Source: an uncultured Bacilli bacterium (GTDB lineage: Bacteria > Bacillota_I > Bacilli_A > RF39 > UBA660). Taken from it: a stretch of 32,000 nt of DNA. Under the pieces are notes generated by a model, which did no database searches, had not been told where the DNA came from, and worked only from the letters and a program-made list of their open reading frames with translations. Shown here piece after piece: positions 1-21,608 of this stretch. Location: NCBI GenBank assembly GCA_934098505.1, contig CAKOOR010000004.1, positions 1-32,000 of the forward strand, read 5' to 3'. Each line of letters begins with the position of its first letter. The first letter of the stretch is position 1. The position numbers and the translations under genes were made by a program.

Positions 1-4
1 AGAG

Positions 5-29
5 TATAAATTGAAAAGTTAAGTGTCCG
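5..29. repeat. Left terminal inverted repeat of the IS30-family element
   Basis: Matches the reverse complement of 1181..1205 at 22/25 positions. Confidence 0.7.
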
Positions 30-105
30 ATTGGGACATAAAAAAGACACATAGAATTACCTATGATACAATGTAAGTGCGAACTAACATTGGAGGTAAT
101 AAACT

Positions 106-1152
106 ATGTGTCTTTTAGATTATAACAAAAAAATAAATAAATATAAACATATAACTTATGCTGAAAGGACTATGATAGAAACTTGGTATAATTCAGATAA
201 AAAAAGTAAAAGAGAAATAGCAATATTGTTGCATAAAAGTGAAAGAACGATTAGAAGAGAAATAAATCGTGGACTAGTTATAATTAGAAATTATGATTGG
301 ACTGAAGGGGTAGAATATAGTGCAAGAGTAGCTCAAGAAAAATATGAATACGGTATGACTAGTAAAGGTCCAGCGTTAAAATTAGATCAAGATATAAAAT
401 TGGTTGAATATATTGAAAATGAGATACTGTGTAATAAGAAGTCTCCTGAAGTAGTAGCTATTCAGTTAAAAGAAAATGGATTTAATATAGAAATAAGTGG
501 TAGAACCATAAGAAATGCAATAAAAAGCGGGTTAATATTTGAAAAATTGCAAAATGGTAAAATAATATATAAAAAAGAATATAATAACAAGAATAAAGAA
601 AAGCGAGTTTCTAAAATGATACCGGCAGAAAAAAGTATTGAGCATAGGCCAAAAGAAGCGAATACAAGAGAGGAATATGGTCATTGGGAAGGAGATTTAG
701 TTGTTGGAAAGCAAGGCACAAAAACAGTTTTATTTACATTAACAGAAAGAAAAACAAGGCAAGAAATAATAATGAAACTTCCAAACAAAGAAACGAAGAC
801 AATAGCGAAAGCAGTTGATAAAATAGAAAGAAAGTATCAAGGAAGGTTTTACAAAGTCTTTAAGAGTATAACATTTGATAATGGAGTTGAATTCATGGGA
901 TATGAGGGCTTAGAAAAGTCATGCTTGAGGAAAAAGAATAGAACAAAAGTATATTATGCTCATCCTTACTGTTCTGGAGAAAGAGGAACAAACGAAAACA
1001 ATAATAGATTAATAAGAAGATGGATTCCGAAAGGAACAGATATAACAAATATAAAAGTATCATTTATAAAGCAAGTTGAAGATTGGATTAATAATTATCC
1101 GAGGTCAATATTTGAATATAAGAGTTCAAATATGATATTATTAGAAATATAA
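106..1152 (+). CDS. IS30 family DDE transposase
   Basis: 348 aa. N-terminal HTH region (ERTMIETWY..SKREIAILLHKSERTIRREI) and a DDE catalytic signature in IS30-typical context: HWEGDLV, ITFDNGVEF, GTNENNNRLIRRWIPKG. Confidence 0.92.
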   Translation: MCLLDYNKKINKYKHITYAERTMIETWYNSDKKSKREIAILLHKSERTIRREINRGLVIIRNYDWTEGVEYSARVAQEKYEYGMTSKGPALKLDQDIKLVEYIENEILCNKKSPEVVAIQLKENGFNIEISGRTIRNAIKSGLIFEKLQNGKIIYKKEYNNKNKEKRVSKMIPAEKSIEHRPKEANTREEYGHWEGDLVVGKQGTKTVLFTLTERKTRQEIIMKLPNKETKTIAKAVDKIERKYQGRFYKVFKSITFDNGVEFMGYEGLEKSCLRKKNRTKVYYAHPYCSGERGTNENNNRLIRRWIPKGTDITNIKVSFIKQVEDWINNYPRSIFEYKSSNMILLEI

Positions 1153-1180
1153 ACGAGCACTTATAAGGTAATTCAATGTG

Positions 1181-1205
1181 CGGACACTTATTATTTCAAT
1201 TTATA
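1181..1205. repeat. Right terminal inverted repeat of the IS30-family element
   Basis: Its reverse complement matches 5..29. It lies 29 nt after the transposase stop codon. Confidence 0.7.
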
Positions 1206-1289
1206 GACTTTTTATCAGAGTCTTTTTTTCGTTGTCAAAATAAACGATTTAGTTTATAATTAAATTAAGATAAGAAGAGGTTATAGATT

Positions 1290-2717
1290 ATGAATAATAA
1301 TACTAATGGTAGCACAAATAATATTAATAATTTACCTAATATAAATCAAAATACCACTAATAGTCTTAATAATGTGGCTTTTAATAATGGAGTAAATAAT
1401 TCCAATATTTCGAATAATAATTCTAATAACATGATTAACAATAGTAATGTTGGCGGTGGAGTAGTTAATAACCAAGCAGTTATTTCTAACAATCAAGGAA
1501 ATATCGTTAATAGTAGTCTATTAAATAATAATCCAGTTAGTAATCCAAATAATGTAAATCAAACAATACCTAATAATAATCCTCTACCTAATCCTAATAT
1601 AAATACAGCTGTGAATTCTAATATAAAAGACCAAAATGTTAATAATGTTAATACGGAAAATAAAACCGCTAATCCAAACAATATAAAAATAGAAGAAACC
1701 AGTGTAACAAGATCACAAAAAGGAACCGTAACTATTGCTACAGTTAATGGTGGTAATGTAAGTATTTTAACTGATAAGATGCCAGAAGCAATTGATTTAA
1801 GTGTTAAAGAAGCCAAAACTATTACTAAGAATGGTAAAAAAGTTCGTATTATGACCAAAAGAGAACTAATAACTAATATCATCTTAAGTTTCTTTTTCGT
1901 ATTAGTATTATGCGGTGCTGGGTATGGCGTTTATTATTATTTATCTGGCAATAACCCTCGTAATTTTGAAACAAAAAATATAAGCATTGAGTATGGCGAG
2001 GAAATACCGGCCTCGGTTCGTAATTATATAAATTTAACAGATATTAGTGAACCTGATTATATTTTAGATACATCGGCAGTTAAAAATGAAATAGGCACTT
2101 ATACTTATAAAGTAAGTTACGGTAGCACCACTAAAACCGGAACAATAACTATAAACGATACTAAAGCCCCAGTTGTAACATTTAATGATGTAAAAGAATT
2201 TATTGAAGGCACAACTATCACTAAAGAAATGCTAGTTGCCAGTTGTGAAGATATATCTAGTTGTACTTATGATTTAACTTCTCCTGTTGATACTAATACT
2301 CCTGGTACTATAACCGCTAGCATTACAGCTAAAGATAATTTAGGTAATTCAAAAGATTATCCAATTGAACTAAATATTATAGAAAAACTAACTACTTTAG
2401 TATGTAGTAGTACTATAGTAACTACTGATGAAAATAGTAAAACTTTATTAGAAAGTAATAATTATACTTTATCATTTACAAACCAAAAACTCTTAAAAAC
2501 AGGTAATTTAAAAGTAATAAGAACTTATTTAAGTGATAGTGATTATACAAGTATAAAAGATAATTTAACTAGTAGTGGTTATACTTTAGAAGACATTAAT
2601 AGAAGAGCTATTAAAGAATCTACTATTGATAATGTTGCTAATTTAACTACACAAGATGAAATAAAAACGCATCTAGAAAGTAATAGTTATACTTGTAGTA
2701 TTAAAGATAATGAATAA
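1290..2717 (+). CDS. Membrane-anchored protein: Asn-rich low-complexity N-terminal region, one TM helix, Ig-like extracellular region
   Basis: 475-aa ORF with RBS AAGAGG 8 nt upstream. Residues 1-130 are dominated by N/S/T/P (NNNTNGSTNNINNLPNINQN...). TM helix IILSFFFVLVLCGAGYGVYYYL. The C-terminal part carries a G-x-Y-x-V-x-Y...D..GN...P pattern typical of bacterial Ig-like surface domains. Function unknown. Confidence 0.75.
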   Translation: MNNNTNGSTNNINNLPNINQNTTNSLNNVAFNNGVNNSNISNNNSNNMINNSNVGGGVVNNQAVISNNQGNIVNSSLLNNNPVSNPNNVNQTIPNNNPLPNPNINTAVNSNIKDQNVNNVNTENKTANPNNIKIEETSVTRSQKGTVTIATVNGGNVSILTDKMPEAIDLSVKEAKTITKNGKKVRIMTKRELITNIILSFFFVLVLCGAGYGVYYYLSGNNPRNFETKNISIEYGEEIPASVRNYINLTDISEPDYILDTSAVKNEIGTYTYKVSYGSTTKTGTITINDTKAPVVTFNDVKEFIEGTTITKEMLVASCEDISSCTYDLTSPVDTNTPGTITASITAKDNLGNSKDYPIELNIIEKLTTLVCSSTIVTTDENSKTLLESNNYTLSFTNQKLLKTGNLKVIRTYLSDSDYTSIKDNLTSSGYTLEDINRRAIKESTIDNVANLTTQDEIKTHLESNSYTCSIKDNE

Positions 2718-2740
2718 TGGCTAGTAATAGTCATTTTTTC
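2717..2740 (+). terminator. Rho-independent terminator of the 1290..2717 gene
   Basis: Hairpin ATGGCTA-GTAA-TAGTCAT (7 bp including one G-T wobble) followed by TTTTTT, starting at the stop codon. Confidence 0.6.
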
Positions 2741-2758
2741 TATATATAAAAATAAAAA

Positions 2759-2785
2759 TTTCATAGAGCATATAACTCTATGAAA
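2759..2785. repeat. Recombinase-core-site-like repeat, locus A left (10-bp arm, 7-bp asymmetric spacer, 10-bp arm)
   Basis: TTTCATAGAG-CATATAA-CTCTATGAAA. It is the perfect 27/27 reverse complement of 3014..3040. Confidence 0.8.
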
Positions 2786-3013
2786 TAGAAAAATAGATAT
2801 CTATCTTTAATATATAATATAACTATAGCATATAATTAGGTTAAATTAAAGAGTTTTTATGATGTTATTATAGTCAAAATTCCCGTCAATTAAATTTTTC
2901 TTTTTATTAGGTTTTATCAGTCTTTATTTAACTTTTTGTAGTCAATTAATTAAAATCTTTTCTGGTCAAAAAATGTAGTCAAACTAGCTTTAAACTTAGT
3001 AAATACCTACTAT

Positions 3014-3040
3014 TTTCATAGAGTTATATGCTCTATGAAA
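3014..3040. repeat. Recombinase-core-site-like repeat, locus A right (inverted relative to 2759..2785)
   Basis: TTTCATAGAG-TTATATG-CTCTATGAAA. The spacer is the reverse complement of CATATAA. It lies 38 nt upstream of the ATG at 3079. Confidence 0.8.
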
Positions 3041-3078
3041 GCGTAATTTAGGATATTTATTAGATGGAGTAAGAAAGA

Positions 3079-4323
3079 ATGAAAAGATTTAATAAAGATA
3101 AGTATTTAAGAAGATTAAAATTAAAACGTATGTTGTCTAATAACTCAAGAAAAATCTATATTATTTTATTATGCCTATTATGTTTTATTATAGGTATCTA
3201 CTTTGCTCATTCTAATTTTTTTGTAAGTGAGGATCAAGAAATAATAAGAACGACAGTAGGAGATTTTACTCAAGGTGATGTCGTAATTGGTGCTTATATA
3301 GAAGGCGAGAGTTATAATCAAATTCCTGCTAAGGGTGATGGCTACGAGGCAACTAAAGTAGTATGTGATAATAATGCCAATGGGACTTGGGATAACGACA
3401 ACTGGCGAATTATAATTGACAATTTGACCATAAAAACTAAATGCAATATTTATTTTGAGTTTAAATCTAGTTATGAATTTGAATATACCGGTAATATTCA
3501 AGAATTTACAGTTCCCAAAACCGGTATTTATAAATTAGAAGTTTGGGGTGCCCAGGGAAGTGCTATATCTTCTAATACAGTGGAAAGTGGATATGGCGGT
3601 TATTCAAGTGGCTTAATAAGTTTAGCTAAAGGTAATAATATTTTTGTTGTAGTTGGTGGTCAAGGCGCAACGATTAGCAATTATTCGACAAATTATAGTG
3701 GCGGTTACAATGGTGGTGGCAATTCGCTTACAAATTCAGATACATTATGGGGAGCTGGCGGCGGCGCTACCTCAATTCAAAATATCTTAATAAATGATGG
3801 GTTACTAAAAAATTATGAAGAAAGCAAGGACAATATTTTAATAGTAGCTGGCGGTGGTGGTGGTTTTGGAACATTTCAAAGTAATAAAAATACAGGTGGC
3901 TCTGGCGGCGGTTACGTAGGTAATAATGGTACATCAAGCAATAGTTCATATGGCGTTGGTGGTAATCAATCTAGCGGTGGTCATGCAACTAATTCAATGT
4001 ATCAAGACCAATCGATTAATTCAGGAAGTTTTGGCTTGGGTGGAAATGGTAATTTAAATACTAGGACAGGTGGAACCGGTGGCGGCGGCGGTTATTATGG
4101 TGGTTCATCAAGTTATGATTACGGCAGTAGTGCTGGTGGTGGCTCTGGCTACATAGGAAACTCATTATTAAATAATAAAATCATGTATTGTTATAACTGC
4201 AACGAATCTAGTGAAACCGATATTAAAACCGTATCTACTACCTGTAATGAAGAAACCCCAACCGAAAATTGTGCAAAAAAAGGCAATGGTTATGCTAAAA
4301 TAACTTATATTGAAGAAAATTAA
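3079..4323 (+). CDS. Membrane-anchored glycine-rich protein (bacterial Gly_rich / ALK-LTK glycine-rich-domain type), paralog 1
   Basis: 414 aa. N-terminal TM anchor IYIILLCLLCFIIGIYFA. Family-typical entry motif YTGNIQEFTVPKTGIYKLEVWGAQG followed by GG-rich repeats (GGYNGGG, AGGGGGFG, GGTGGGGGYYGG, AGGGSGYIG). Cys-containing C-terminal module MYCYNCNESSETD..CNEETPTENC. Confidence 0.85.
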   Translation: MKRFNKDKYLRRLKLKRMLSNNSRKIYIILLCLLCFIIGIYFAHSNFFVSEDQEIIRTTVGDFTQGDVVIGAYIEGESYNQIPAKGDGYEATKVVCDNNANGTWDNDNWRIIIDNLTIKTKCNIYFEFKSSYEFEYTGNIQEFTVPKTGIYKLEVWGAQGSAISSNTVESGYGGYSSGLISLAKGNNIFVVVGGQGATISNYSTNYSGGYNGGGNSLTNSDTLWGAGGGATSIQNILINDGLLKNYEESKDNILIVAGGGGGFGTFQSNKNTGGSGGGYVGNNGTSSNSSYGVGGNQSSGGHATNSMYQDQSINSGSFGLGGNGNLNTRTGGTGGGGGYYGGSSSYDYGSSAGGGSGYIGNSLLNNKIMYCYNCNESSETDIKTVSTTCNEETPTENCAKKGNGYAKITYIEEN

Positions 4324-4336
4324 TATTAAAATAAAT

Positions 4337-4371
4337 AGACAGAAATATCTAAAAAGAATTCTGTCTTTTTA
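4337..4371 (+). terminator. Rho-independent terminator of paralog 1
   Basis: AGACAGAA ... TTCTGTCT (8-bp perfect stem) followed by TTTT. Confidence 0.6.
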
Positions 4372-4414
4372 GTATCCTTAAATAATTGTTACTTTTGGTA
4401 TTAAAGATAAAAAA

Positions 4415-4440
4415 TTCATAGAGTATATAACTCTATGAAA
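4415..4440. repeat. Recombinase-core-site-like repeat, locus B left
   Basis: TTCATAGAG-TATATAA-CTCTATGAAA. It is the perfect 26/26 reverse complement of 4669..4694. Confidence 0.8.
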
Positions 4441-4668
4441 ACTATTTTTCAGTATCTATTTTTAACTTATATTACAAATATACCATATAATTAGGATTAA
4501 TTAAAGAGTTTTTAATAAACTATTATAGTCAAAATTGTAGTCATTTAATTTTAGGCTTTTTCTAGATATTATAGGACTCTAAAGCTATTTTTAATTTCAA
4601 AGAACTATTAACTTTTATGGTCAAAAAATGTAGTCAAGTTGGCTTTTAATCTAGTAAATACCTACTAT

Positions 4669-4694
4669 TTTCATAGAGTTATATACTCTATGAA
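4669..4694. repeat. Recombinase-core-site-like repeat, locus B right (inverted)
   Basis: TTTCATAGAG-TTATATA-CTCTATGAA. It lies 38 nt upstream of the ATG at 4733. Confidence 0.8.
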
Positions 4695-4732
4695 ACCATA
4701 ATTAAGGGTATTTTTACTAACGGAGGTTAAAA

Positions 4733-5935
4733 ATGAAGAAATTTAATAAAGATAAGTATTTAAGAAGATTAAAATTAAAGCGTATGTTGTCTAATAACTC
4801 AAGAAAAATTTATATTATTTTATTATGTCTATCATGTTTTATTATAGGTATCTATTTTGCTCATTCTAAGTTTTTTGTAAGTGAAGATCAAGAAATAATA
4901 AGAACGACAGTAGGCGATTTTACCCAAGGTGATGTTATAATTGGTGCTTATATTGACGGAAAAAGTAATAATAAAATTCCTGCTAAAAGTGATGGTTACG
5001 AGGCAACTAAAGTAGTATGTGATAATAATGCCAATGGTACATGGGATAACGAAAGTTGGCAAATTATAATTGATAATTTGACCATAAAAACTAAATGCAA
5101 TATTTATTTTGTTTCTAAAAATGAATATTCCTACACTGGCTATGAAGAAATTTTTACAGCTTATAAAACTGGAACTTATAAGTTAGAGGTCTGGGGTGCT
5201 CAGGGTGGTGGTACAACAACTTATCAAGGTGGCACTGGTGCTTATAGTACGGGTATTGCTTATTTAGAAAGTGGTAATAAATTATATATCAATGTCGGTG
5301 GCTCTGGCACGATAAACACATCAACAAGCAGTAGTTTTAGTTATTTAACTGGTGGTTATAATGGCGGTGGTAATAGTACAGTCGGTGGAGATCCAAATAA
5401 CTACGCTGCTGGTGGTGGTTCTGGTGGCGGTGCCACGCATATAGCCAAAGTTTCCGGTCTTTTATCGACTTTGGAAAATAATAAAGACGATATTATAATT
5501 GTTGCCGCTGGCGGCGGTGGTGCTGATACTAACTCTTATGATAGCAGTCTTTCTCATAGCGGGACTAATGGTAGTGGCATTAGTAGTTCTACTACAGCAG
5601 GCCAAAAAAATTCATGTACCATTGCCACCCAAACTACTGGTTATAGCTTTGGCCAAGGCGGTAATTATACCTCCAAGACTCATGGCGCCGGTGGCGGTGG
5701 TAGTGGCTTTTATGGCGGCGGTGGTGGCGGTATGAACGGCCCAGGATGCGGTGGTTCAAGCTACATCGGCAATTCTTTATTAAGTGATAAAGCTATGTAC
5801 TGTTATAACTGTACCGAATCTAGTGAAACTGATACAAAAACCGTATCTACTACCTGTAATGAAGAAACACCAACCGAAAATTGTGCTAAAAAAGGCAATG
5901 GTTATGCTAAAATAACGTTTATAAAAGAAAATTAA
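4733..5935 (+). CDS. Membrane-anchored glycine-rich protein (Gly_rich / ALK-type), paralog 2
   Basis: 400 aa. The first ~127 aa and last ~55 aa are nearly identical to paralog 1 (MK[RK]FNKDKYLRRLKLKRMLSNNSRKIYIILLCL... and ...YIGNSLL..K.MYCYNC.ESSETD.KTVSTTCNEETPTENCAKKGNGYAKIT). The central Gly-rich region is divergent. Motif YKLEVWGAQGGG is present. Confidence 0.85.
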   Translation: MKKFNKDKYLRRLKLKRMLSNNSRKIYIILLCLSCFIIGIYFAHSKFFVSEDQEIIRTTVGDFTQGDVIIGAYIDGKSNNKIPAKSDGYEATKVVCDNNANGTWDNESWQIIIDNLTIKTKCNIYFVSKNEYSYTGYEEIFTAYKTGTYKLEVWGAQGGGTTTYQGGTGAYSTGIAYLESGNKLYINVGGSGTINTSTSSSFSYLTGGYNGGGNSTVGGDPNNYAAGGGSGGGATHIAKVSGLLSTLENNKDDIIIVAAGGGGADTNSYDSSLSHSGTNGSGISSSTTAGQKNSCTIATQTTGYSFGQGGNYTSKTHGAGGGGSGFYGGGGGGMNGPGCGGSSYIGNSLLSDKAMYCYNCTESSETDTKTVSTTCNEETPTENCAKKGNGYAKITFIKEN

Positions 5936-5945
5936 TAAAACTTAT

Positions 5946-5991
5946 AAGAGTAATATTTTAAAATTAATAATTAGAAATATTACTCTTTTTA
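5946..5991 (+). terminator. Rho-independent terminator of paralog 2
   Basis: Perfect 12-bp stem AAGAGTAATATT (5946..5957) / AATATTACTCTT (5976..5987) followed by TTT. Confidence 0.65.
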
Positions 5992-6107
5992 AAATTTTAA
6001 AATATCATTATTCAAATTTATAAATATAATTAAAAAACTTTAAAATGATAAAATTATGTGGTATATTTATAATATATGTTAGAGATAAAACTAAAAGAAA
6101 GAATAAA

Positions 6108-6208
6108 GTTGGGTAGGAATTAAAAGATGAAATAAATTTAAAAAGTAATATTAAAATAGCGGGTGGTATTGGTACAACTAATGATCTTTATATAATTGAA
6201 AGTAGTTA
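6108..6208 (+). pseudogene. Relic of the 3' end of a paralog of the 6250..7785 gene
   Basis: Translation of 6127..6208 gives DEINLKSNIKIAGGIGTTNDLYIIESS*. This aligns with the C-terminus of the downstream gene, VFNLKADTLAQGSGTASDPYRISS*, on the shared pattern NLK....A.G.GT..D.Y.I.SS-stop. There is no ORF upstream of it and the reading frame is broken around 6108..6126. Confidence 0.35.
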
Positions 6209-6249
6209 AATAATTTAAATAAATTATAATAAGATAAAGGAGATAGAAA

Positions 6250-7785
6250 ATGACAAAGAAAAATATAATATTTATAAGTGTATCTTTAATACTACTTATG
6301 TTATTAGGAATAGGAGTATCCTATTCTATGTGGATTTTGACTGTAAGTCAAACTGGGGTTAATACGGCTTATTCTAAGTGTTTTGATTTAAGTATAACTA
6401 ATAAAGAAAATAATATTTCATTAGAAAATGCTTATCCTATTACTAATGAAAAGGGTAAGAGCTTAACACCTTTTACTTTTACAATAACTAATACTTGTGA
6501 TATTAATGCTAGTTATAATATTAATTTAGAAAGTTTAAATGGTACTACTTTAAAAGCTGATTATCTAGATATAATGTTAGATAGTAATGAACCTAAGAGA
6601 TTAAATAGTTATTCTACTGCTACTTTAGTTAATAATGATAGTATTGATTCTAGAAACTTAACTAGTGGTATTTTAGATAGTGGTAAGTCTAAAAGTTTTT
6701 CTCTTCGTATTTGGATAGATTATAATACGACTTTAGCTGATTTAGAGAATTCTACTAAGTTATTTAAAGGTAAAATAATTGTAGTTGGTACTCCTACTAA
6801 TGAGTCTGAACCAATAATTAATAAGATTATTTCTCAGTTAGATACTTCTGGTAAGTGTCCAACGGTAAATGAAGATGGTTCGGTAAATGTAACTGGTGTT
6901 GAGGCAACAGATGGTTACTTATGTAAAGCCAAAGATGCTTATGGTGATTCCTATTATTATCGTGGTAATGTAACAAATAACTATGTGAAGTTTGCTGATA
7001 AATATTGGCGAATTGTTCGTATTAATGGTGATGGAACTGTTCGTGTTATTTATGATGGTACAAGTGCCCATACCAATGGAGAGTCAAGTAGTGATCGTCA
7101 AATTGGTACTAGTGCGTTTAATAGTAGTTATAATGATAATGCTTATGTTGGTTATATGTATGGTGCCACTGGTGCCTCAACGTATGCAGCAGCTCATGCA
7201 AATACCAATGATTCAACAATCAAAACTTACATAGATAATTGGTATAAAACGAATATTTTAGGAACTGCCAATGAACAATATTTGGCTGATAATGTTTTTT
7301 GTAATGATCGTTCAATAAGTACGTATACCACAAGTTCAAATACAAAACTGGGTTATGGAACTAATTCAACATATTATAGATGGGCATATGGTCCATGGAA
7401 CGGTACAAACTATGGTAATATGAAAATGATGTTAACATGTCCACAACAAAATGATGCCTTTACAGTAAGTGATACTACTAATGGTAATGGGGCTTTAACG
7501 TATCCAATAGGCCTTTTGAGTACAGACGAAATAGCACTAGCCGGTGGATGGAACGAAGAAAATAGTGGTTATTACCTATACTCTGGGCAAGCTTGGTGGG
7601 CTTCCTCGCCGTACTACTTCGGTGGTAACTACGCTAGCGTGCGTCGCGTGGATTCGGGTGGCTATGCGAACCACAGCAACAACGTGGGCGACGCTCGCGG
7701 GGTTCGGCCAGTTTTCAATCTGAAGGCTGATACACTGGCACAAGGCTCAGGGACAGCATCTGACCCATATCGCATTTCTTCGTAG
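6250..7785 (+). CDS. Membrane-anchored surface protein with C-terminal DUF6273-like (WW..SP ... GVRP) ligand-binding-type module
   Basis: 511 aa, RBS AAAGGAG. N-terminal anchor IIFISVSLILLMLLGIGVSY. The C-terminal ~280 aa carry the ordered motifs YWRIVRINGDGTVRVIYDG, YIDNWY, LLSTDEIALAGG, AWWASSP and GVRPVFNL. The name DUF6273 is from memory and has not been verified. Confidence 0.8.
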   Translation: MTKKNIIFISVSLILLMLLGIGVSYSMWILTVSQTGVNTAYSKCFDLSITNKENNISLENAYPITNEKGKSLTPFTFTITNTCDINASYNINLESLNGTTLKADYLDIMLDSNEPKRLNSYSTATLVNNDSIDSRNLTSGILDSGKSKSFSLRIWIDYNTTLADLENSTKLFKGKIIVVGTPTNESEPIINKIISQLDTSGKCPTVNEDGSVNVTGVEATDGYLCKAKDAYGDSYYYRGNVTNNYVKFADKYWRIVRINGDGTVRVIYDGTSAHTNGESSSDRQIGTSAFNSSYNDNAYVGYMYGATGASTYAAAHANTNDSTIKTYIDNWYKTNILGTANEQYLADNVFCNDRSISTYTTSSNTKLGYGTNSTYYRWAYGPWNGTNYGNMKMMLTCPQQNDAFTVSDTTNGNGALTYPIGLLSTDEIALAGGWNEENSGYYLYSGQAWWASSPYYFGGNYASVRRVDSGGYANHSNNVGDARGVRPVFNLKADTLAQGSGTASDPYRISS

Positions 7786-7960
7786 AAGAAATAAAAGAAA
7801 TTGAATTTTAAAACAGCTTAGCTTGGAATGACATTGGGAGAGTTAAAAGATAGAACGTGACGGAACCAAGAAATTCAAGCAACCCAAGAGCGAAAGGAAA
7901 GTACGTGTGCAAGCCCCAAGGATGGGAAGCTAAGGGACCCAAAACGAACAATAATGCGAG

Positions 7961-7997
7961 GGGTTTTGCTTAAACTATAAAAGCTTAAGCAAAACCC
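7961..7997 (+). terminator. Strong hairpin closing the intergenic element (possible terminator, weak T tract)
   Basis: Perfect 13-bp stem GGGTTTTGCTTAA (7961..7973) / TTAAGCAAAACCC (7985..7997) with an 11-nt loop. It is followed by GATTT rather than a long T run. Confidence 0.4.
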
Positions 7998-8032
7998 GAT
8001 TTAAATTAAAATTATAGAAATGAGGTAAGAAA

Positions 8033-11000
8033 ATGAGAAAAATAGTAGATGGTAATACTGCTTGTAGTAATATTGCTAATTTATTTACAGAAATAGCATC
8101 TATTTATCCTATTACACCATCTAGTCCGATGGCTAGTAATATCGATAATTTAAAATTAAGAAAGAAGAATTTATTTAATGAATCAGTTGAAGTAGTCGAA
8201 ATGCAAAGTGAAGCCGGGGCTGCTGGCGCTATGCATGGAGCTTTAATAAGTGGTTCTCTAGCAACGACTTTTACAGCATCACAAGGACTTCTATTAATGA
8301 TTCCTAATATGTATAAAATTGCCGGTGAAGGTTTACCAGGTGTCATTCATGTTGCGGCTCGTACGGTGGCAACCCATGCTTTATCAATCTTTGGTGATCA
8401 CAGTGATATTTATGCCACTCGTGGAACTGGTTTTGCAATACTCGCATCAACTAATGTCTTTGATGCTCAAAACTTAGCAGCCGTTGCTCATCTATCAACC
8501 ATCGAAGGAAGTGTACCTTTCTTACACTTCTTTGACGGTTTTAGAACTAGTCATGAACTAAATAGTATAGAAGAATTACCAGATGAAGAATTATTAAAAC
8601 TAATTGATTTTGATAAAGTAAATGCTTTTAAAAAACATGCTCTAAATGTTGGTTGTGGCTACCAAAGAGGTATGGCCGAAAACGAAGATATTTACTTCCA
8701 AAGTGTTGAAGCTCGTAATAATGATTACTTAAAGATTCCAGATATCGTAAATAACTATATGGAAAAAATAAATGATATCATGCATACTGATTATCAACCA
8801 TTTAACTATTATGGTTCCAAGACGGCAAAATATGTTATTGTTGCTATGGGTAGTGTTTGCGATACAGTAAAACTTACACTTGATGAATTAAATAAAGAAA
8901 ATAATGTTTATGGTCTAATTGAAGTTCATCTATATCGTCCATTTAGTAAAGATTATTTAACTAAAGTTATACCAAGTACCGTTGAAAAAATTGCTGTTTT
9001 AGATCGAACTAAAGAATCAGGTAGTATTGGGGAACCATTATATCTAGATGTTGTAGCTGCTTTACATGATAAAAATATCCAAATCGTTGGCGGCCGTTAC
9101 GGCTTATCTAGTAAAAATACAACTCCAAGTGATATTGCTGGTGTTTATAAAATGCTAGCAACAGAGTTAAAAAATAACTTTACGATTGGTATTAATGATG
9201 ATGTAACTAATTTAAGCTTAGCAAAAGTACCTATGGATATTCAAGTAGCTGATAAAGAAATTATAATCTATGGCTATGGTTCTGATGGTATGGTTTCAAC
9301 TTCTAAAGACATTATGCATTATCTAGGCGAAGAAAAAGATTTACATGTTCAAGGTTATTTCCAATATGATAGTAAAAAATCGGGTGGAGTAACTGTATCA
9401 AACTTAAGAATGTCTAGTAAACCAATAAATGCTCCATATTACGTATCCCATCCATCGTTACTAGTTATTACTAAAGATGCTTATTTAAAAGACTTTGATA
9501 TGTTTAGTAACTTAAAAGAAAATGGTATTTGCTTAATCAATACTAATAAAAAATCTCATGAATTAGACGAGATTATACCTAATAAAGCTAAAGAACTTAT
9601 TAAAGATAAAAATATCAAAGTATTACTAATAGATGCTGATAAAATTGCGTTAGAAAATGGTATTAAAGGTAAGATTAGTAAGATAATGGAAATAGTTATC
9701 TTAAAACTAATGGGATTTAATGATGCTGAAGACTATATTAAAGATTCTATTCGTAAGAAATTTGGTACTAAAGGTGATGATATCGTTAATGCTAATATTA
9801 ATTCTTTAAGTAGTGCTGTTAAGAGTGTTATCCTTGTTAAGGGAGAATTTACAAAAAAAGAAGAAAATGAATCACATGATGATATCTTTACTCTAATTAA
9901 TAAAAGAGAAGGGGATAATCTTAAAGTATCTGATCTCTTAGCTTATAAAAACGGTATTTTCCCTAATGGCCTAGCGGCTAATGAAAAACGTAAAATAACT
10001 AATATGGTTCCAAAGTGGATTCCTGAAAATTGTATTCAATGTGGAATGTGTGCAACAGTTTGTCCTCATGCTGTTATTCGTCCAATTATAACTGCGGCTA
10101 AAGATGCTGAAAAAGGTATTAAAGTCCTAGGACATACTGATTATAATTATGAAATTGTTGTTAGTGAAGCTGACTGTACTTCTTGTGGTCTATGTATTAA
10201 TGCTTGTCTTGGTAAAGCCGGTAAGAAAGCTTTAGAATTTGGTGAAGCTACTTACGAAACTCAAGATTATGCTGATAAAATGTTTAAAGACCATCAAAAC
10301 CCTGAAATTTTTGACAGATTTACTTTAAAAGGTGCCTCTTTAAGAAAACCTTGTTTCGAATTTAGTGGCGCTTGCGCTGGTTGTGGCGAAACTCCATACT
10401 TAAAAATGTTAAGTCAATTATTTGGCGAAAAATTAGTTATTGCTAATGCGACAGGTTGTTCATCAATTTACGGTGGTTCCGCTCCATCAACCCCATACTT
10501 AATTCCTTGGGCTAACTCTTTATTTGAAGATAATGCTGAATTTGGTTATGGTATGTATTTAACTTATAAAAATACCCAAAAACGTATCCATGATATTATT
10601 ACTAAGTCAGTAGATTGTGTAAATGATGAAGTAAAAGAGTTACTAAATAAATGGTTAGAAAATGAGAATAACTATGATGTAACTAAAGAAATTGTTGATA
10701 AATTACAAACGATGGAAATTCCAGAGGATTTAAAAGATATTTTAGAATATATGGTTGCTCGTAGCGTCTTCATCGTTGGTGGCGATGGTTGGGCTTATGA
10801 TATCGGTTTCGGTGGTATCGATCATGTCTTATCTAGTGGCGAAAATGTTAATGTCCTAGTTTTAGATACCGAGGTTTATTCTAATACCGGTGGTCAAGCA
10901 TCGAAATCAAGTCGTGTTGGGGCCGTTGCTGAATTTGCAAACATGGGTAAAAAGACAGCTAAGAAAGACTTATTTAGAATAGCTATGTCATATCCAAACT

Positions 11001-11401
11001 GTTATATCGGTAGTATCTCTTTCGGGGCTAACTTCATGCAAACTATTAAAACTATGAAAGAAGCTGAATCTCATAATGGACCAAGTTTAATTATTTGCTA
11101 CTGTCCATGCATCGAACAGGGTCTTCATGGTGGCATGTCAAACTCTATAAGTGAAGAAAAATTAGCGGTAGAATGTGGTTATGTTAACTTAATGCGTTAT
11201 GTACCTGAAGATAAAAAATTATATATCGATTCTAAAGAACCAGACTTTACTAAATATGAAGATTTCTTAAAGAACGAAGTAAGATATAGTAGTCTAATGA
11301 AAAAAGATCATGAACTTGCTAAAGAACTTCTAGATATTCAAGTAAATAATGCTAAAGAAAGATATGACTTTTATAAAGATATCGCTAGTAAAAATAATTA
11401 A
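8033..11401 (+). CDS. nifJ: Pyruvate:ferredoxin (flavodoxin) oxidoreductase
   Basis: 1122 aa single-chain PFOR. Two 4Fe-4S ferredoxin motifs (CIQCGMCATVCP, CTSCGLCINAC), a Cys cluster (CAGCGETPY, ATGCSSIYGG) and the TPP-binding motif GGDGWAYDIGFGG...SNTGGQ. Confidence 0.95.
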   Translation: MRKIVDGNTACSNIANLFTEIASIYPITPSSPMASNIDNLKLRKKNLFNESVEVVEMQSEAGAAGAMHGALISGSLATTFTASQGLLLMIPNMYKIAGEGLPGVIHVAARTVATHALSIFGDHSDIYATRGTGFAILASTNVFDAQNLAAVAHLSTIEGSVPFLHFFDGFRTSHELNSIEELPDEELLKLIDFDKVNAFKKHALNVGCGYQRGMAENEDIYFQSVEARNNDYLKIPDIVNNYMEKINDIMHTDYQPFNYYGSKTAKYVIVAMGSVCDTVKLTLDELNKENNVYGLIEVHLYRPFSKDYLTKVIPSTVEKIAVLDRTKESGSIGEPLYLDVVAALHDKNIQIVGGRYGLSSKNTTPSDIAGVYKMLATELKNNFTIGINDDVTNLSLAKVPMDIQVADKEIIIYGYGSDGMVSTSKDIMHYLGEEKDLHVQGYFQYDSKKSGGVTVSNLRMSSKPINAPYYVSHPSLLVITKDAYLKDFDMFSNLKENGICLINTNKKSHELDEIIPNKAKELIKDKNIKVLLIDADKIALENGIKGKISKIMEIVILKLMGFNDAEDYIKDSIRKKFGTKGDDIVNANINSLSSAVKSVILVKGEFTKKEENESHDDIFTLINKREGDNLKVSDLLAYKNGIFPNGLAANEKRKITNMVPKWIPENCIQCGMCATVCPHAVIRPIITAAKDAEKGIKVLGHTDYNYEIVVSEADCTSCGLCINACLGKAGKKALEFGEATYETQDYADKMFKDHQNPEIFDRFTLKGASLRKPCFEFSGACAGCGETPYLKMLSQLFGEKLVIANATGCSSIYGGSAPSTPYLIPWANSLFEDNAEFGYGMYLTYKNTQKRIHDIITKSVDCVNDEVKELLNKWLENENNYDVTKEIVDKLQTMEIPEDLKDILEYMVARSVFIVGGDGWAYDIGFGGIDHVLSSGENVNVLVLDTEVYSNTGGQASKSSRVGAVAEFANMGKKTAKKDLFRIAMSYPNCYIGSISFGANFMQTIKTMKEAESHNGPSLIICYCPCIEQGLHGGMSNSISEEKLAVECGYVNLMRYVPEDKKLYIDSKEPDFTKYEDFLKNEVRYSSLMKKDHELAKELLDIQVNNAKERYDFYKDIASKNN

Positions 11402-11412
11402 AAGTATATTAA

Positions 11413-11446
11413 AGATGTAGAAAATTAATTTCTATGTCTTTTTTCT
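11413..11446 (+). terminator. Rho-independent terminator of nifJ
   Basis: AGATGTAGAAA-ATTAA-TTTCTATGTCT (11-bp stem with two G-T wobbles) followed by TTTTTT. Confidence 0.6.
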
Positions 11447-13160: not shown

Positions 13161-14105
13161 ATGAAAAATTTTGATAACTTAAAAGAAAATGGAATAAGAT
13201 ACGGTGGGCATAATGGTTATAAATTAGGAGTTATAATTGATGGTAAAAATTGGTTTTTAAAGTTTCCACAATCAACTAGAAATTTAGCAAGGAAAGTAGA
13301 AATTTCTTATACTACTTCACCATTATCTGAATATATAGGATCTCATATTTATGAGATTATTGGTATTCCTGTTCATAAAACAATACTCGGTATAAAAGAT
13401 AAAAAAATAGTAGTAGCTTGTAAAGATTTTCGAAAAAATCCTAATATATATTTTTTTGATGATTTTAATTCGATTAAAAATGATTATGTCGAAGGATTAG
13501 ATGAAAAGTTAGAATCAACTTCCTCCAGCAGTAGTCATGGTGTAAGTTTAGAAGAAACAATGATTATGATGGATAACAATCCTTTATTTTTAAAAATGCC
13601 TGCTTTAAAAAGACGTTTTTGGGATATGTTTATTGTAGATGCTTTAATAGGAAATAATGATCGTAATAATGGCAACTGGGGTGTACTTGTAAATAGTGAA
13701 AATAACGAAACAGAACTGGCACCAGTCTTTGATAATGGGGCTTCATTTAATACTAAATCAAGTGATGACAAAATCGAGGCTATATTAAATGACAATGCTA
13801 GATTTGTAGAAAGTGCCTATAGAACCAGAACCTGTATTTTTGAAGAAAATGCCCAGTAAATAAATCCATTCAAGTATATTGAATCACTAAAAAATAAAGA
13901 ATGTAATGAAGCATTAATAAGAATAGTACCTAAAATTAATTTAGATAAAATAAGTGAAATGATTAATGAAATACCAGAAAGTTTTGAAGGAATAGATATA
14001 ATTAGTAAAAAGAGAAAAGAATTTTATATAAAATGTTTAAAATATCGTTATGAAATTTCCTTATATCAAACTTATTTAAAAACTTTAAAATTAGAAAATA
14101 ATTAA
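13161..14105 (+). pseudogene. HipA-like Ser/Thr kinase (C-terminal-domain type) interrupted by a single in-frame TAA
   Basis: ORF 13161..13859 contains the HipA-type catalytic loop FIVDALIGNNDRNNGNWGVL. The stop at 13857..13859 is followed in the same frame by 81 more sense codons (INPFKYIESLKNKECNEALIRIVPKINLDKISEMINEIPE...KTLKLENN*) ending at 14105. Confidence 0.65.
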
Positions 14106-14201: not shown

Positions 14202-16181
14202 ATGTCAGATTTTACATTTTTAAATAAAGAACAAGTATTTGGAGAACATCAATTATCCGTTCTAAAAAAGTATGGAGTAAAGGCAGTTCTAACGGATTTT
14301 TCTAATCTTCTTGGTGGTTTTTATGTTGGTACTAAACATTATGGTGTTTACTGGTTAAAGGATTTAACCGATGATAAGGTAGCCGTAGTTAATTATGGTG
14401 GTTCATTAAGACATGAGGCTGATAATGTAAAAAGTATCGCTGCCCGTATAGTATTACCAATAAACAACGATATAGAAAATTCTATTACAGAAAAAGGAAA
14501 ACTATTATTTTGTGAGCCTTCTAATTGTAATCCTTCTAATAGGCCTCTGGTTGTAAAAGAAGTAGAATATGGTTTTTATCCTCAGATGGCCGTATCAAAC
14601 GAACTACAAGAAAAATTAGAAGCGGAATATAAGACCTCTAATTTAAAGGTTAGCCACAACAGTTATACAGTAGACAAAAACCATTTTTTAACGAAAGACA
14701 AGGCCTTTTCGCCTTTAGCAATTCCTGAATATATATATGAAAACAAATATTATGTGAGAGTTATAAATTCTTCTTGGCCTTATACTACCTTAAATGATGG
14801 TAGAGAAGTAAAAAATGACGATTTTGTTTGGCTTGAAGTAAGTCCTGTTGAGTGGTTAATTGATAAAGAGTCTAATCTTTTAATAAGTAAATATTTATTG
14901 TTTTCTAATATCAGCTATTCATATGCTAAAAATGATAAAGATAATTTTGAAAAAACAGGTATTAAATGGTATTTAGATAATATTTGGTCTAAAGAACTAA
15001 TGCGAATATTTCAGATTAATCCGGTTAGTCCTATTATAAATAAAGAGCCTATTATAGATAAAGAGCCTAAAGAGCCTATTATAAATAAAGAGCCTAAAAA
15101 GTTACAAAAGGAACCTAACCCTTATAATTTTGATTTTTCTAAAGTAAGGGAAGAAGATATTATTAAAGGGGCTATCCAAAGTAATGTTGCAGTCTTCTTA
15201 CACGGCCGAAGTAGTGATGGTAAATCAAGTAGAGTAAAACAACTAGACCCTGATTGCATAATTCTTTACTTAAGAAATGCTACTCCAGATAGTCTAAATG
15301 GTAAATCTGTTTATAATGAAAATACTGGTGAAATGATTGATGTTCCCCCAACTTGGTATAAAAAATTACAAGAAAAATGCGAAAAAGAGCCTGATAAAAT
15401 TCATCTTGTTTTCTTTGATGAATTAACTAATGCCTTGCCAAGTATTCAAGGTATGGCATTCAATATTATTTTAGATGGTGAAGTAAATGGTATCTGGAAA
15501 CTACCTAAAAACGCGAGAGTTGTTGCGGCCGGCAATGACTTGAATGATTCTTTGGCTGCGAACGAAATGGCTGAACCATTATTTAACCGCTTTGCTCATG
15601 TTTATTTCAACACAACTACTAATGACTGGTTAAAGTGGGCCTCAATGGATAGTAAAGATTATCAAACTCTATCTTATAGTTCTAAAGAAAATCCTATGAA
15701 AATTCATCCGGCTATCTATGCCTTTATTTCTTATGAACGCTCCTATGAACATAATATTTTAAGAACACCATTTGACGGTAAAACACCAAATGCTGACCCT
15801 AGAAAATGGGAGATGGCTTCTAGAGTTTTATATCAAACCGGTAAACCTGAAATGTTAAGAGCCTTGATTGGGTGGAAATTAACCAAAAAATTTATTGCAT
15901 TCTGTAAAGAAAAGGCCGTATGTTATCACGATATTATAACTAAGACCTGGAATATTGAAGACGTTGCCGATGCTGAATTAAACATTACCGAAAAATATGC
16001 CACTACCGTAAGTTTGGCTTTGCAAACCAAAGAAGAAGATTTAGAAGTCGTTAGAAACTTTATTGAGTGTTTTGGGCAAGAATTCTTATCAATGTTTGAT
16101 GCTATCTGGAGTTACAACAATAAAGAAAGATTAGAAACACTTAATAATCTAAAATTAGCAAAAGCCAAAAAGACTGAATAA
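14202..16181 (+). CDS. MoxR-like (AAA_5-type) AAA+ ATPase with N-terminal DUF6273-like sensor-type domain, copy 1
   Basis: 659 aa. Core motifs: Walker A HGRSSDGKSS (GxxxxGKS), Walker B LVFFDELTNA, sensor-1-like VVAAGND, and LFNRFAHVY (Arg finger region). This follows the MoxR/AAA_5 pattern DE..N..p..q......il.........lp.n.r..a..N........l...l.nRF. The N-terminal 270 aa carry the motifs FTFL..E, LTDFS.LLGG, YWLKD, ARIVLPI, YGFYPQ, VEWLID and IKWYLDNIW. Confidence 0.85.
   Translation: MSDFTFLNKEQVFGEHQLSVLKKYGVKAVLTDFSNLLGGFYVGTKHYGVYWLKDLTDDKVAVVNYGGSLRHEADNVKSIAARIVLPINNDIENSITEKGKLLFCEPSNCNPSNRPLVVKEVEYGFYPQMAVSNELQEKLEAEYKTSNLKVSHNSYTVDKNHFLTKDKAFSPLAIPEYIYENKYYVRVINSSWPYTTLNDGREVKNDDFVWLEVSPVEWLIDKESNLLISKYLLFSNISYSYAKNDKDNFEKTGIKWYLDNIWSKELMRIFQINPVSPIINKEPIIDKEPKEPIINKEPKKLQKEPNPYNFDFSKVREEDIIKGAIQSNVAVFLHGRSSDGKSSRVKQLDPDCIILYLRNATPDSLNGKSVYNENTGEMIDVPPTWYKKLQEKCEKEPDKIHLVFFDELTNALPSIQGMAFNIILDGEVNGIWKLPKNARVVAAGNDLNDSLAANEMAEPLFNRFAHVYFNTTTNDWLKWASMDSKDYQTLSYSSKENPMKIHPAIYAFISYERSYEHNILRTPFDGKTPNADPRKWEMASRVLYQTGKPEMLRALIGWKLTKKFIAFCKEKAVCYHDIITKTWNIEDVADAELNITEKYATTVSLALQTKEEDLEVVRNFIECFGQEFLSMFDAIWSYNNKERLETLNNLKLAKAKKTE
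15030..15101 (+). repeat. In-frame tandem repeat (18-bp unit CCTATTATARATAAAGAG, 3 full copies plus 9-bp partial copies) in the inter-domain linker
   Basis: Full units at 15030..15047, 15048..15065 and 15075..15092. Partial CCTAAAGAG at 15066..15074 and CCTAAAAAG at 15093..15101. Encodes PIINKE-PIIDKE-PKE-PIINKE-PKK. Confidence 0.85.
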
Positions 16182-18143: not shown

Positions 18144-18163
18144 AAAGAAAAGAGTTGAAAAAA

Positions 18164-20071: not shown

Positions 20072-20212
20072 ACTGCTCAATAGATTATGTTTTATTTAAA
20101 AATTGAAATAAGCGTAAAATATTAGCTATTTAAAAATAAGTCATTTTCAAAAGATAATCATTAAAACATTATCATAAGTTAAACTAGACATTTAATATAT
20201 GCAAACTTTTAC

Positions 20213-20240
20213 TTGACAAATAGTAAAAAAATGTTAAACT
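20213..20240 (+). promoter_or_regulatory. Sigma-A-type promoter of the XRE regulator gene
   Basis: TTGACA (20213..20218), 16-nt spacer ending in TGT, then TAAACT (20235..20240). It lies 34 nt upstream of the ATG at 20274. Confidence 0.55.
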
Positions 20241-20273
20241 AATCATCAACCAAAGAAGAAAGCAGGTGGGTTT

Positions 20274-20630
20274 ATGGTTAAAGGTGATAGATTAAAAGCA
20301 TTAAGAAAAGAAAAAGGCTTAACTCAAAGTCAATTAGGTGAATTAATCGGGGTTAAAAAATCCGTTATTTGTCTTTATGAAAGAGAACTAAGAAATCCAA
20401 CTATTGAAAGTATCGTTGCCTTATGTCAAATTTTTAATGTCAATGCTGATTATTTAATCGGTAACGACGAACTAGCAACTGTTGATGTAAATGGAGAAGA
20501 AGAGCGCTTTGCAATGACTAAAGAAGAAGTTGCATTTATGAAAGAACTTCGTAAAAATAAAAAAGCTTATACTCTTCTTGTAGAAGATTTAAAAAGGGGA
20601 ATGGATTTTTTAGAATCCAAAATTAACTAA
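20274..20630 (+). CDS. XRE-family helix-turn-helix transcriptional regulator
   Basis: 118 aa. LKALRKEKGLTQSQLGELIGVKKSVICLYERELRNPTIESIVALCQIFNVNADYLIG is a canonical HTH_3 domain. Confidence 0.9.
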   Translation: MVKGDRLKALRKEKGLTQSQLGELIGVKKSVICLYERELRNPTIESIVALCQIFNVNADYLIGNDELATVDVNGEEERFAMTKEEVAFMKELRKNKKAYTLLVEDLKRGMDFLESKIN

Positions 20631-20654
20631 AATCTAGGAAACTAGATTTTTTTT
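20631..20654 (+). terminator. Rho-independent terminator of the XRE gene
   Basis: AATCTAG-GAAA-CTAGATT followed by TTTTTT, immediately after the stop codon. Confidence 0.7.
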
Positions 20655-20679
20655 AATGCTTTTGAATATGATTTATTAG

Positions 20680-21471: not shown

Positions 21472-21557
21472 TTATTGCGATTAATTTATTATAAGTAAAA
21501 AGTAAAACTTAGAAAAACTCTTAAAAGATGAAAAGTATGTGAAGATTAGGAAAACAT

Positions 21558-21586
21558 TTGACTAATCTTTTTAGTAATGCTAGAAT
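21558..21586 (+). promoter_or_regulatory. Sigma-A-type promoter of the marR-ABC operon
   Basis: TTGACT (21558..21563), 17-nt spacer, TAGAAT (21581..21586). Confidence 0.6.
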
Positions 21587-21590
21587 TATT

Positions 21591-21608
21591 TTGTTAGTTT
21601 CCTAACAA
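21591..21608. promoter_or_regulatory. Palindromic candidate MarR operator
   Basis: TTGTTAG-TTTC-CTAACAA, a perfect 7-bp inverted repeat between the -10 box and the RBS of the MarR gene. Confidence 0.5.

Follow-up and report, generated by a model that had tools for sequence, protein, structure and literature searches.

The window analyzed here is a stretch of 32,000 nucleotides (nt) from an uncultured Bacilli bacterium (RF39; UBA660; assembly GCA_934098505.1, contig CAKOOR010000004.1, positions 1 to 32,000). Its gene at 6250 to 7785 codes for a predicted surface protein and ends in a segment that we interpret as the variable region (VR) of a diversity-generating retroelement (DGR), written from a template repeat (TR) that is present on contigs of closely related gut Bacilli from other assemblies. 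Related loci are cited below with labels beginning with L and related proteins with labels beginning with P. The gene and the parts of its 3′ end are the following.

6250 to 7785, plus strand: DGR target gene as interpreted here, 511 amino acids, taken from the list of open reading frames (ORFs)
7591 to 7711, plus strand: VR, homologous to the TR of L042, L057, and L058, from the comparison of TR and VR
7591 to 7611, plus strand: invariant 5′ part of the VR, GCTTGGTGGGCTTCCTCGCCG, encoding WWASSP and identical in the TRs of L009, L042, and L057
7612 to 7698, plus strand: mutable core of the VR, 29 codons, from family alignments and the TR
7699 to 7711, plus strand: GC-rich 3′ boundary element resembling an initiation of mutagenic homing (IMH) element, GGGGTTCGGCCAG, identical in TR and VR
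7712 to 7785, plus strand: conserved 3′ tail, FNLKADTLAQGSGTASDPYRISS plus the stop codon, outside the TR homology, from the comparison of flanks

The target protein starts with a hydrophobic N-terminal anchor (residues ~7 to 27, MTKKNIIFISVSLILLMLLGIGVSYSMW), next to which come an N-terminal domain that varies between lineages, a central domain that is conserved and begins at residue ~190, and a DUF6273-like C-terminal domain that contains the VR. Residues 190 to 511 are 81% identical to the target protein encoded next to the retroelement cassette of L042. More than 7800 homologs were found in metagenome-derived protein collections, many of them with a precomputed assignment to DUF6273 (PF19789), and the relatives with genome records come from uncultured gut Bacilli or 'Tenericutes' (Mycoplasma sp. 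CAG:956, UMGS735, and several Hadza metagenome-assembled genomes) with several paralogs apiece. According to published work, DUF6273 is C-type-lectin-like and bears DGR variable regions in phage proteins (PMC10743442). Through its annotated close homologs the window protein is likely related to this family, although its own score stays below the cutoff. Hadza gut metagenome contigs that are 100% identical to the window cover positions 1 to 11152 (L052) and 18925 to 32000 (L049). In the Hadza sample hadza-I-L_O_20_2642, positions 1 to 11152 are matched at 100% identity by NODE_23 (306 kb, coverage 41.5).

In alignments with close (87 to 92%) and distant (~65%) homologs, the flanks ...GQxWWASSP and GVRPVFNLKADTLAQGSGTASDPYRISS were invariant, and between them fixed and hypervariable columns alternated according to the pattern WWASSPxxFxGxxAxVRxVxSxGxAxxxxxVxxAxGVRPV. 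A sequence search of the PDB with the target protein gave no match. When an AlphaFold (AF2) model of residues 185 to 511 was compared by Foldseek with predicted viral structures, DUF6273 phage proteins ranked first (E values of 5e-5 and weaker), followed by DUF1566, with template modeling (TM) scores of ~0.3. The sole significant fold match of the C-terminal 327 residues (window 6802 to 7782) in the PDB was the IgA peptidase of Thomasclavelia ramosa (9qa6; E 2e-4, 314 aligned columns, TM 0.36). This match hints at a domain that may be common to a secreted protease of another gut Bacilli lineage.

The mean GC content of the window is 29.1%, and it climbs to 53 to 60% over ~7560 to 7740. The 120-nt stretch starting at 7591 has the highest GC content in all 32 kb (63.3%, z = 4.7), with a glycine-rich coding stretch (5651) and the tRNAs (26972) as runners-up. 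An earlier note, prepared from the letters of the DNA alone, had drawn attention to this segment, and its hand counts of 36/60 G+C in 7621 to 7680 and 10/60 in 6481 to 6540 were exact. The GC-rich segment opens where that note had placed the break, at ...Q-A-W-W-A-S-S-P, and the bias toward NNC codons that it described is real: C occupies the third position in 17 of the 40 segment codons versus 25 of the 448 codons in the remainder of the ORF. The ratio of the asparagine codons AAT and AAC is 0:4 in the segment versus 43:5 in the remainder. After the GC-rich run, the gene tail has 49% GC up to the stop codon at 7783 to 7785. The anomaly in GC content and codon usage is real and exceeds chance fluctuation.

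The TR of CAG:956 (L009) was considered as the cognate template and was rejected, as the VR differs from it at 21 adenines but also at 6 non-A positions. Compared with the L009 TR, the family alignment forecast a cognate TR with AAC in place of AGA, AAC AAC in place of AAT GCG, and GCT at the third-last codon. Exactly this TR was then found on contigs with a reverse transcriptase (RT) 90% identical to the CAG:956 RT (P0132/P0283; L042 to L046, L057, and L058). Scanning of JGI metagenome contigs and IMG/VR for the exact pattern of the predicted TR yielded 0 matches, and the viral contigs of IMG/VR contained no match to the predicted TR type. The L042-type TR has the sequence GCTTGGTGGGCTTCCTCGCCGAACAACTTCAATGGTAACAACGCTAACGTGCGTAACGTGAATTCGAATGGCAATGCGAACAACAACAACAACGTGAACAACGCTAACGGGGTTCGGCCAG, and all variable columns of the family alignments (A1, A2, and A3) correspond to asparagine codons of the TR-encoded peptide WWASSPNNFNGNNANVRNVNSNGNANNNNNVNNANGVRP.

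Over 118 nt (7594 to 7711, from TGGTGG to GGCCAG), the VR differs from the TR of L042, L057, and L058 at 19 positions, all of which are adenines in the TR; 19 of 37 A sites but 0 of 81 non-A sites are affected (Fisher p = 4e-12). The substitutions relative to the TR comprise 12 A→G, 4 A→T, and 3 A→C changes, and they are located exclusively in AAY codons, 12 at the first and 7 at the second codon position. Eighteen of the 29 codons of the mutable core are asparagine codons (AAC or AAT) in the TR, in line with the AAC-rich template codons that the earlier note had named as typical of DGRs, and between them lie fixed scaffold codons for F, G, A, V, R, and S. Identity of the VR to the TR begins at 7591, and the full TR contains all of 7591 to 7611. 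At the 3′ end, GGGGTTCGGCCAG is the last stretch common to TR and VR; directly past it the VR continues with TTTTCAATCTGAAGG and the TR with ATTCCTACTAAGG. The same 3′ boundary is present in the TRs of L009, L042, L047, and L057. By these comparisons the GC-rich terminal run appears to behave as an IMH-type boundary, the role that the note had proposed for it. The adenine-only mismatches to a real TR in the vicinity of genes for bAvd and a DGR-type RT support the interpretation of 7591 to 7711 as a DGR variable region, and we regard its DGR origin as almost certain. A copy with mismatches confined to adenines and lying close to an RT and an Avd-like gene was what the note had recommended searching for, and it was found on contigs of closely related gut Bacilli that belong to other assemblies.

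The template also accounts for the composition of the segment. The TR has 51% GC, with the fixed scaffold codons GTG, CGT, GGC, GCG, TCG, and GCT, and 15 of the 19 adenine substitutions resulted in G or C; because of this scaffold and these A→G/C changes, the VR reaches 64% GC. The A→G/C/T changes fall in the first two positions of AAY codons, and the NNC bias of the VR arises because the third base of the AAC template codons is left unmutated.

A syntenic ortholog of the target gene, flanked by a glycine-rich protein gene upstream and a PFOR gene downstream, is present in L056, which shows 94.7% nt identity to the window over 5.3 kb. The VR of L056 differs from the TR at 18 adenines and at no other position. 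It differs from the VR of the window at 20 of 37 A sites and at none of the 81 others, 29 of which are non-A third-codon positions. In the part of the gene directly upstream of the VR, divergence between the two amounts to 9.4% (70/744; P for 0/81 = 3e-4). As the two VRs differ at template adenines only and the flank has diverged, at least one of the lineages must have been overwritten here from the same template after their split. Judged from these alignments, this result shows template-directed rewriting of this very locus after the lineage split, in at least one lineage.

The sequence downstream of the mutable core is unusually well conserved. The IMH-like element and the tail (7699 to 7785) are identical in 87 of 87 positions to the 3′ flank of the cassette-adjacent VR of L057 and show 2 differences from L042, and the divergence of the tail from L056 is 2.7% compared to 9.4% just upstream of the VR. 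The predicted fold of 7695 to 7800 as single-stranded DNA has a z score of -3.1. The tail at 7712 to 7785 may serve as a cis recognition context in addition to being coding sequence.

When related loci were scanned for DGR-type RT motifs, RT genes were found beside family members in L009 (CAG:956), L040, and L041. The arrangement in L009 is as follows.

L009, 11729 to 11845, after the target gene: TR, encoding WWASSPNNFNGRNANVRNVNSNGNANNANNVNNNNGVRP, from reading of the locus
L009, 12120 to 13229, minus strand: RT gene, convergent with the TR and preceded by a small Avd-like ORF

The RT matches RVT_1 (E 2e-23, 84 bits) and contains the motif IGNMSSQ...YMDD. Its best match among solved structures is a 328-residue chain named 'Reverse transcriptase' (8ub7 series, E 4e-31), which we take to be the Bordetella phage bRT; group II intron RTs matched with 6e-11. 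The bAvd gene overlaps the RT gene in L042, L057, L058, and L009, and bAvd matches PF22296 (E 8e-8, 33.2 bits versus a cutoff of 40 bits) and NCBIfam DivGenRetAVD NF033474 (E 8e-9), in both cases below the cutoffs. Every TR is followed by a homologous spacer of ~260 nt that ends in a terminator, including TR-like copies in L008, L011, L014, and L016. The TR and the RT gene are ~1.8 kb apart in L042, with two unrelated ORFs in between, and ~1.2 kb apart in L057; in L009 the TR spacer RNA ends only ~70 nt away from the RT gene. The size of the gap is set by the insertion of unrelated ORFs and ranges from 0.07 to 1.8 kb by contig. The context of the cassettes is chromosomal, with MBOAT, PMT_2, and tRNA-synthetase genes as neighbors.

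The full-length VR of L042 (4647 to 4770, minus strand) has one codon more than the TR in a run of five AAC codons (ADYYYGIVGYALG versus ANNNNNVNNANG), which is consistent with slippage while the cDNA was made or integrated. The cassette-adjacent target of CAG:956 (L009, 9596 to 11444) is split into two overlapping ORFs, with an extra copy of the 3′ tail at 11373 to 11444. The cassette-adjacent VR of L009 shows 16 non-A mismatches and gaps relative to the adjacent TR; the nearest VR is therefore not cognate to this TR.

By analogy with the DGR of Bordetella phage BPP-1, the following mechanism can be proposed. A membrane-anchored surface protein of low-GC gut Bacilli would display a DUF6273/C-lectin-like C-terminal domain whose ligand-facing codons are rewritten by mutagenic retrohoming. 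The TR RNA, rich in AAC and AAT and followed by the conserved, structured spacer of ~260 nt, would bind the bAvd-RT complex; in BPP-1, the TR must sit within structured flanking RNA (bioRxiv 10.1101/2023.10.23.563531). As in BPP-1, bAvd-RT would reverse-transcribe the TR RNA with misincorporation opposite adenines, and the cDNA would replace the VR between the 5′ block TGGTGGGCTTCCTCGCCG (5′ homology at 7591 to 7611) and GGGGTTCGGCCAG (7699 to 7711). The 18 asparagine-templated codons would supply the diversity, and no stop codons would be created.

The overall explanation that we favor as rather probable is that the gene carries the VR of a DGR, is served by a remote cassette, and is rarely rewritten. 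Slightly less firmly, we assume that the same genome harbors the cassette at another place, from which it would act in trans on a remote target. In CAG:956, at least 6 paralog loci are present (L009, L010, L013, L016, L020, and L028) and an RT was found at one of them; the occurrence of several paralogs per genome with a single RT locus found fits trans-acting cassettes. That targets of non-phage DGRs can be non-adjacent or remote (>100 kb) is well established (45 of 372 DGRs, with seven in Treponema; PMC5758913). With its intact boundary and tail and its lack of decay at non-A positions, the VR has all that a competent target should need. A circumstantial observation is that the exact cassette-adjacent protein occurs in 30 index blocks and the exact window protein in 29, within the same study series.

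With respect to activity, the window strain is near-clonal, with ~1 single-nucleotide polymorphism per 17 kb when an IS30-like gene is set aside, and all relatives with a backbone identity of ~93 to 97% carry a different VR. The VRs of L056, P0002, and P0314 to P0316 differ from that of the window at A sites only. The variability among strains that the earlier note had asked for is thus present between lineages, where it is restricted to A sites, and absent within the clone. Within the time span of the clone, the VR has remained stable; its rewriting shows over the span of lineage divergence. Rare activity is deduced from the fixation of the VR across the clone, in which the VR would be either quiescent or orphaned.

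Several results weigh against the proposal of a rarely active VR in a DUF6273-like protein under a remote cassette. The exact window protein (P0313) was found on 27 contigs and a variant with one exchanged residue (P0001, A379V) on 4, and all of them carry the same VR. A six-frame phmmer search detected no homolog of RT or bAvd in the window and in syntenic contigs extending ~10 kb past both ends, and an nhmmer profile of nine spacers (E<=1) detected no ~260-nt TR spacer RNA in the same region. Although the matching TR is known from other assemblies, no link to the genome of the window was found through member lists of RT clusters, extension of contigs by way of window proteins, BLAST overlap, or equal-distance comparison with reference genomes. 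The samples listed for RT contigs and for window-type contigs do not overlap, these lists being incomplete through de-duplication. The match of the window protein to the Pfam model DUF6273 (PF19789) covers amino acids 442 to 492 and only the last third of the model, and its score of 19.9 bits (E 7e-4) is below the gathering cutoff of 23.5 bits. The AF2 model is of moderate confidence only (predicted local distance difference test score of 63, predicted TM score of 0.72).

In the window itself, no TR copy was detected with the exact pattern, with a pattern allowing 3 mismatches, or by an ungapped adenine-tolerant scan, and Rfam searches of the window at gathering thresholds and at E<=1 returned two tRNAs and otherwise spurious matches. 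The absence of a local TR or RT from the 32 kb, already remarked on in the earlier note, was thereby borne out and also holds ~10 kb beyond each end. As no part of a cassette is present in the window and its ~10-kb flanks, the target is non-adjacent.

The strongest competing explanation is that of an orphan VR, which was written by an ancestral DGR, lost its cassette from the clone, and is now an ordinary fixed coding sequence. The earlier note had named both a remote target and a fossil as options. Cassette components are missing from ~52 kb around the gene, an identical VR is present on ~31 contigs from many samples, and no RT was found beside any of the UMGS735 or CAKOOW01 paralogs (in at most 10 kb of flanking sequence, less where a contig ended). 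In Treponema, strains are known that keep target 'remnants' without a complete DGR (PMC4891356). However, no decay is visible in the window VR, given the 0 of 81 non-A mismatches to the TR and the 87 of 87 identical positions of boundary and tail to a cassette-adjacent target. The clone is very young, so that invariance within it says little, and the near-equal prevalence of the window protein and the cassette-adjacent protein (29 versus 30 index blocks) is compatible with one clone having both. We consider an orphan VR possible, but clearly the less probable alternative to a remote cassette.

A further explanation is that VR and tail were acquired from another family member by gene conversion or mosaic recombination and that the locus is not a DGR target. 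Mosaicism does occur in the family: P0312 combines the N-terminal 360 residues of the window protein with a different 3′ part, P0006 is a mosaic, and L009 contains the fragmented target with the duplicated copy of the 3′ tail. The far stronger conservation of the tail compared to the gene body would also suit such an import. On the other hand, the 0 of 81 non-A changes between the VRs of the window and L056 require at least one templated rewrite or the repeated import of perfect VRs, and recombination leaves the adenine specificity unexplained and still needs a DGR as the source. From the sequence comparisons, simple import by paralog recombination is an insufficient explanation, and we regard it as improbable. 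Plain horizontal mosaicism with a GC-rich donor, which the earlier note had named as a refuting scenario, or a local amino acid or codon bias without any retroelement could draw on the abrupt GC jump alone and can be dismissed, since the source template resides in the same lineage of ~29% GC, orthologs and other relatives differ at template adenines only, and the GC excess is accounted for by the 51% GC template plus 15 A→G/C changes.

Apart from the full TR, the related cassettes contain a second, shorter template, and TR-like copies occur at other loci.

L057, 9381 to 9431 (plus strand); L042, 627 to 677 (plus strand); L009, ~13800 to 13850 (minus strand): mini-TR, from sequence comparison
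L057, from 13140 downward, and the corresponding site in L058, minus strand: mini-VR, from the match to the mini-TR
L008, 5304 to 5682; L011, 9041 to 9421; L014, 11100 to 11479; L016, 11270 to 11623: TR-like, adenine-retaining copies with spacer, directly after paralogous targets

The mini-TR comprises 51 nt; it has the same strand as bAvd and RT and lies ~245 nt ahead of the start codon of bAvd. Its structure is TGGTGGGCTTCCTCGCCG-TCTGTTTCTTATTCCTTGGC-GGGGTTCGGCCAG, that is, a 20-nt insert without adenine with the 5′ and 3′ ends of the TR on either side; of the 5′ homology of the window VR, it matches the last 18 nt only (7594 to 7611). The CAG:956 variant has one adenine in the insert and a 5′ block that is one base short. 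A shorter version (~205 nt) of the TR spacer follows the mini-TR, and its first hairpin shows a compensatory change (GCTAA..TTAGC versus ACTAA..TTAGT).

The cassette-adjacent target of L057 and L058 contains an exact copy of the mini-TR of its own lineage in place of the VR, followed by a VR-type 3′ flank. This copy shifts the reading frame, and the protein ends with ...WWASSPSVSYSLAGFGQFSI* after 411 instead of 453 amino acids. The truncated allele was found on 28 + 5 contigs and the full-length L042 allele on 2. With homology arms of just 18 and 13 nt, the mini-VR would most simply be read as a template-to-VR transfer by the DGR. Such a transfer implies recent activity of that cassette lineage, and it suggests that the mini-VR represents a templated OFF state. 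DGRs with two TRs are known, for example from Stenotrophomonas sp. SKA14 (PMC6642488), and no report of an adenine-free truncating template was found in a literature search.

The TR-like copies with their spacers have the appearance of separate TR-RNA genes. The examined sequence of the L008, L011, L014, and L016 loci contained no RT or Avd gene, some of these contigs being short, and for CAG:956 at least two TRs (L009 and L016) and one RT locus were found. A speculative model, to which we assign a rather low probability, is a distributed DGR in which several separate TR-RNA genes and the mini-TR would all depend on a single bAvd-RT. Copying of the mini-TR would swap the 87-nt core for 20 nt and truncate the protein with the homing boundaries kept, and could thus act as a templated, potentially reversible OFF switch in addition to diversification. 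The window VR, whose boundaries are identical, would be one remote site subject to both operations.

Some further features of the window were noted. An A-rich and relatively GC-rich spacer (7786 to 8032) separates the target gene from the PFOR gene (8033 to 11401) and is kept in L056 and L004 (85% mean column identity). It ends in a hairpin (7961 to 7997) with a compensatory change in L056, its RNA fold has a z score of -2.4, and no Rfam match was obtained. A degenerate TR or DGR RNA was considered for this spacer and rejected, as it is conserved together with the downstream PFOR gene and does not match the TR spacer profile; it could act as an attenuator or leader for PFOR.

Upstream of the target gene, the ORFs 3079 to 4323 and 4733 to 5935 encode paralogous proteins with ALK/LTK-type glycine-rich domains (PF12810, E 1e-40 and 1e-36). 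Their N-terminal anchor module (~127 amino acids) is 54% identical to the N terminus of the cassette-adjacent targets of L042 and L009, and the common module therefore argues that surface proteins of this lineage shuffle one anchor among different C-terminal heads. The gene at 106 to 1152 encodes an IS30-like transposase (HTH_38 and rve) found in many genomic contexts (45 index blocks; the flanks of L054 and L055 differ). It coincides with contig ends in some assemblies. Of the 41 differences that set L001 apart from the window, 40 lie within it, clustered at 280 to 717. Farther downstream, ORFs 14202 to 16181 and 18155 to 20071 are paralogous, with a stretch of ~750 nt that is ~83% identical (15123 to 15871 versus 19010 to 19758); they flank a DUF2201 gene, and HipA_C-like and AAA_14/DUF4143 genes are located just upstream. 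Synteny with L048, L050, and L051 breaks at ~27014, just past two tRNA genes (26932 to 27089), and a gene for an MvaI/BcnI-type restriction endonuclease is present at 27792 to 28541 (minus strand).

These results illustrate that a DGR target with no retroelement nearby can be located from a compositional anomaly visible to the eye. They place a multi-paralog family of membrane-anchored, DUF6273-like proteins of uncultured low-GC gut Bacilli under DGR control and make these proteins candidates for a variable interface facing the host, phages, or glycans. The dispersed TR-RNA genes and the truncating mini-template would, if true, extend the known capabilities of DGRs. Remote targets of the Treponema type, C-lectin-like scaffolds, and AAY templates are already known, and the target described here is a further case in an uncultured lineage.

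Among known systems, TvpA of Treponema denticola has a C-lectin fold of the formylglycine-generating-enzyme type. The T. denticola DGR is chromosomal, with up to seven remote targets, and resembles the system described here in being cellular and non-phage. Several paralogous surface proteins, in part encoded far from the RT, depend on one cassette there (PMC5758913), as is proposed here. Its VR is located at the C terminus of a lectin-like domain, as is probably the case here, and some strains of T. denticola retain targets without a complete cassette (PMC4891356). The two differ in host phylum and in the domain family of the target, which is DUF6273-like here. In contrast to T. denticola, the full TR is convergent with bAvd-RT in our case, additional putative TR-RNA genes are scattered downstream of other paralogs, and bAvd is preceded by a mini-TR.

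The DGR of Bordetella phage BPP-1 (Mtd, bRT, Avd, IMH) shares with the present system the adenine-specific, AAY-only mutagenesis, the GC-rich 3′ boundary of the VR that is common to the TR, the pair of Avd and RT, and a TR in structured flanking RNA, to which the conserved ~260-nt spacer after every TR would correspond here. It differs in being phage-borne with an adjacent target, compared to a chromosomal system with a non-adjacent target. The DUF6273 targets of phage DGRs (tentaclins; Faecalibacterium prophage DGRs) probably belong to the same C-type-lectin-like domain family (PMC10743442, PMC11792537). These are phage receptor-binding proteins, whereas the product of the window gene is a cellular protein, predicted to be membrane-anchored, to which a large N-terminal and central region is added; the gene has housekeeping genes as neighbors. 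With multi-TR DGRs of the Stenotrophomonas sp. SKA14 type, the related cassettes share the presence of more than one template, namely the full TR and the mini-TR, and some genomes have further TRs after paralogs; in contrast to that type, the second template here is 51 nt long, has an adenine-free insert (with one adenine in CAG:956), and truncates the target when copied. The closest system to the window element is the chromosomal multi-target DGR of the Treponema type, and the domain of its target probably matches the DUF6273 targets of phages.

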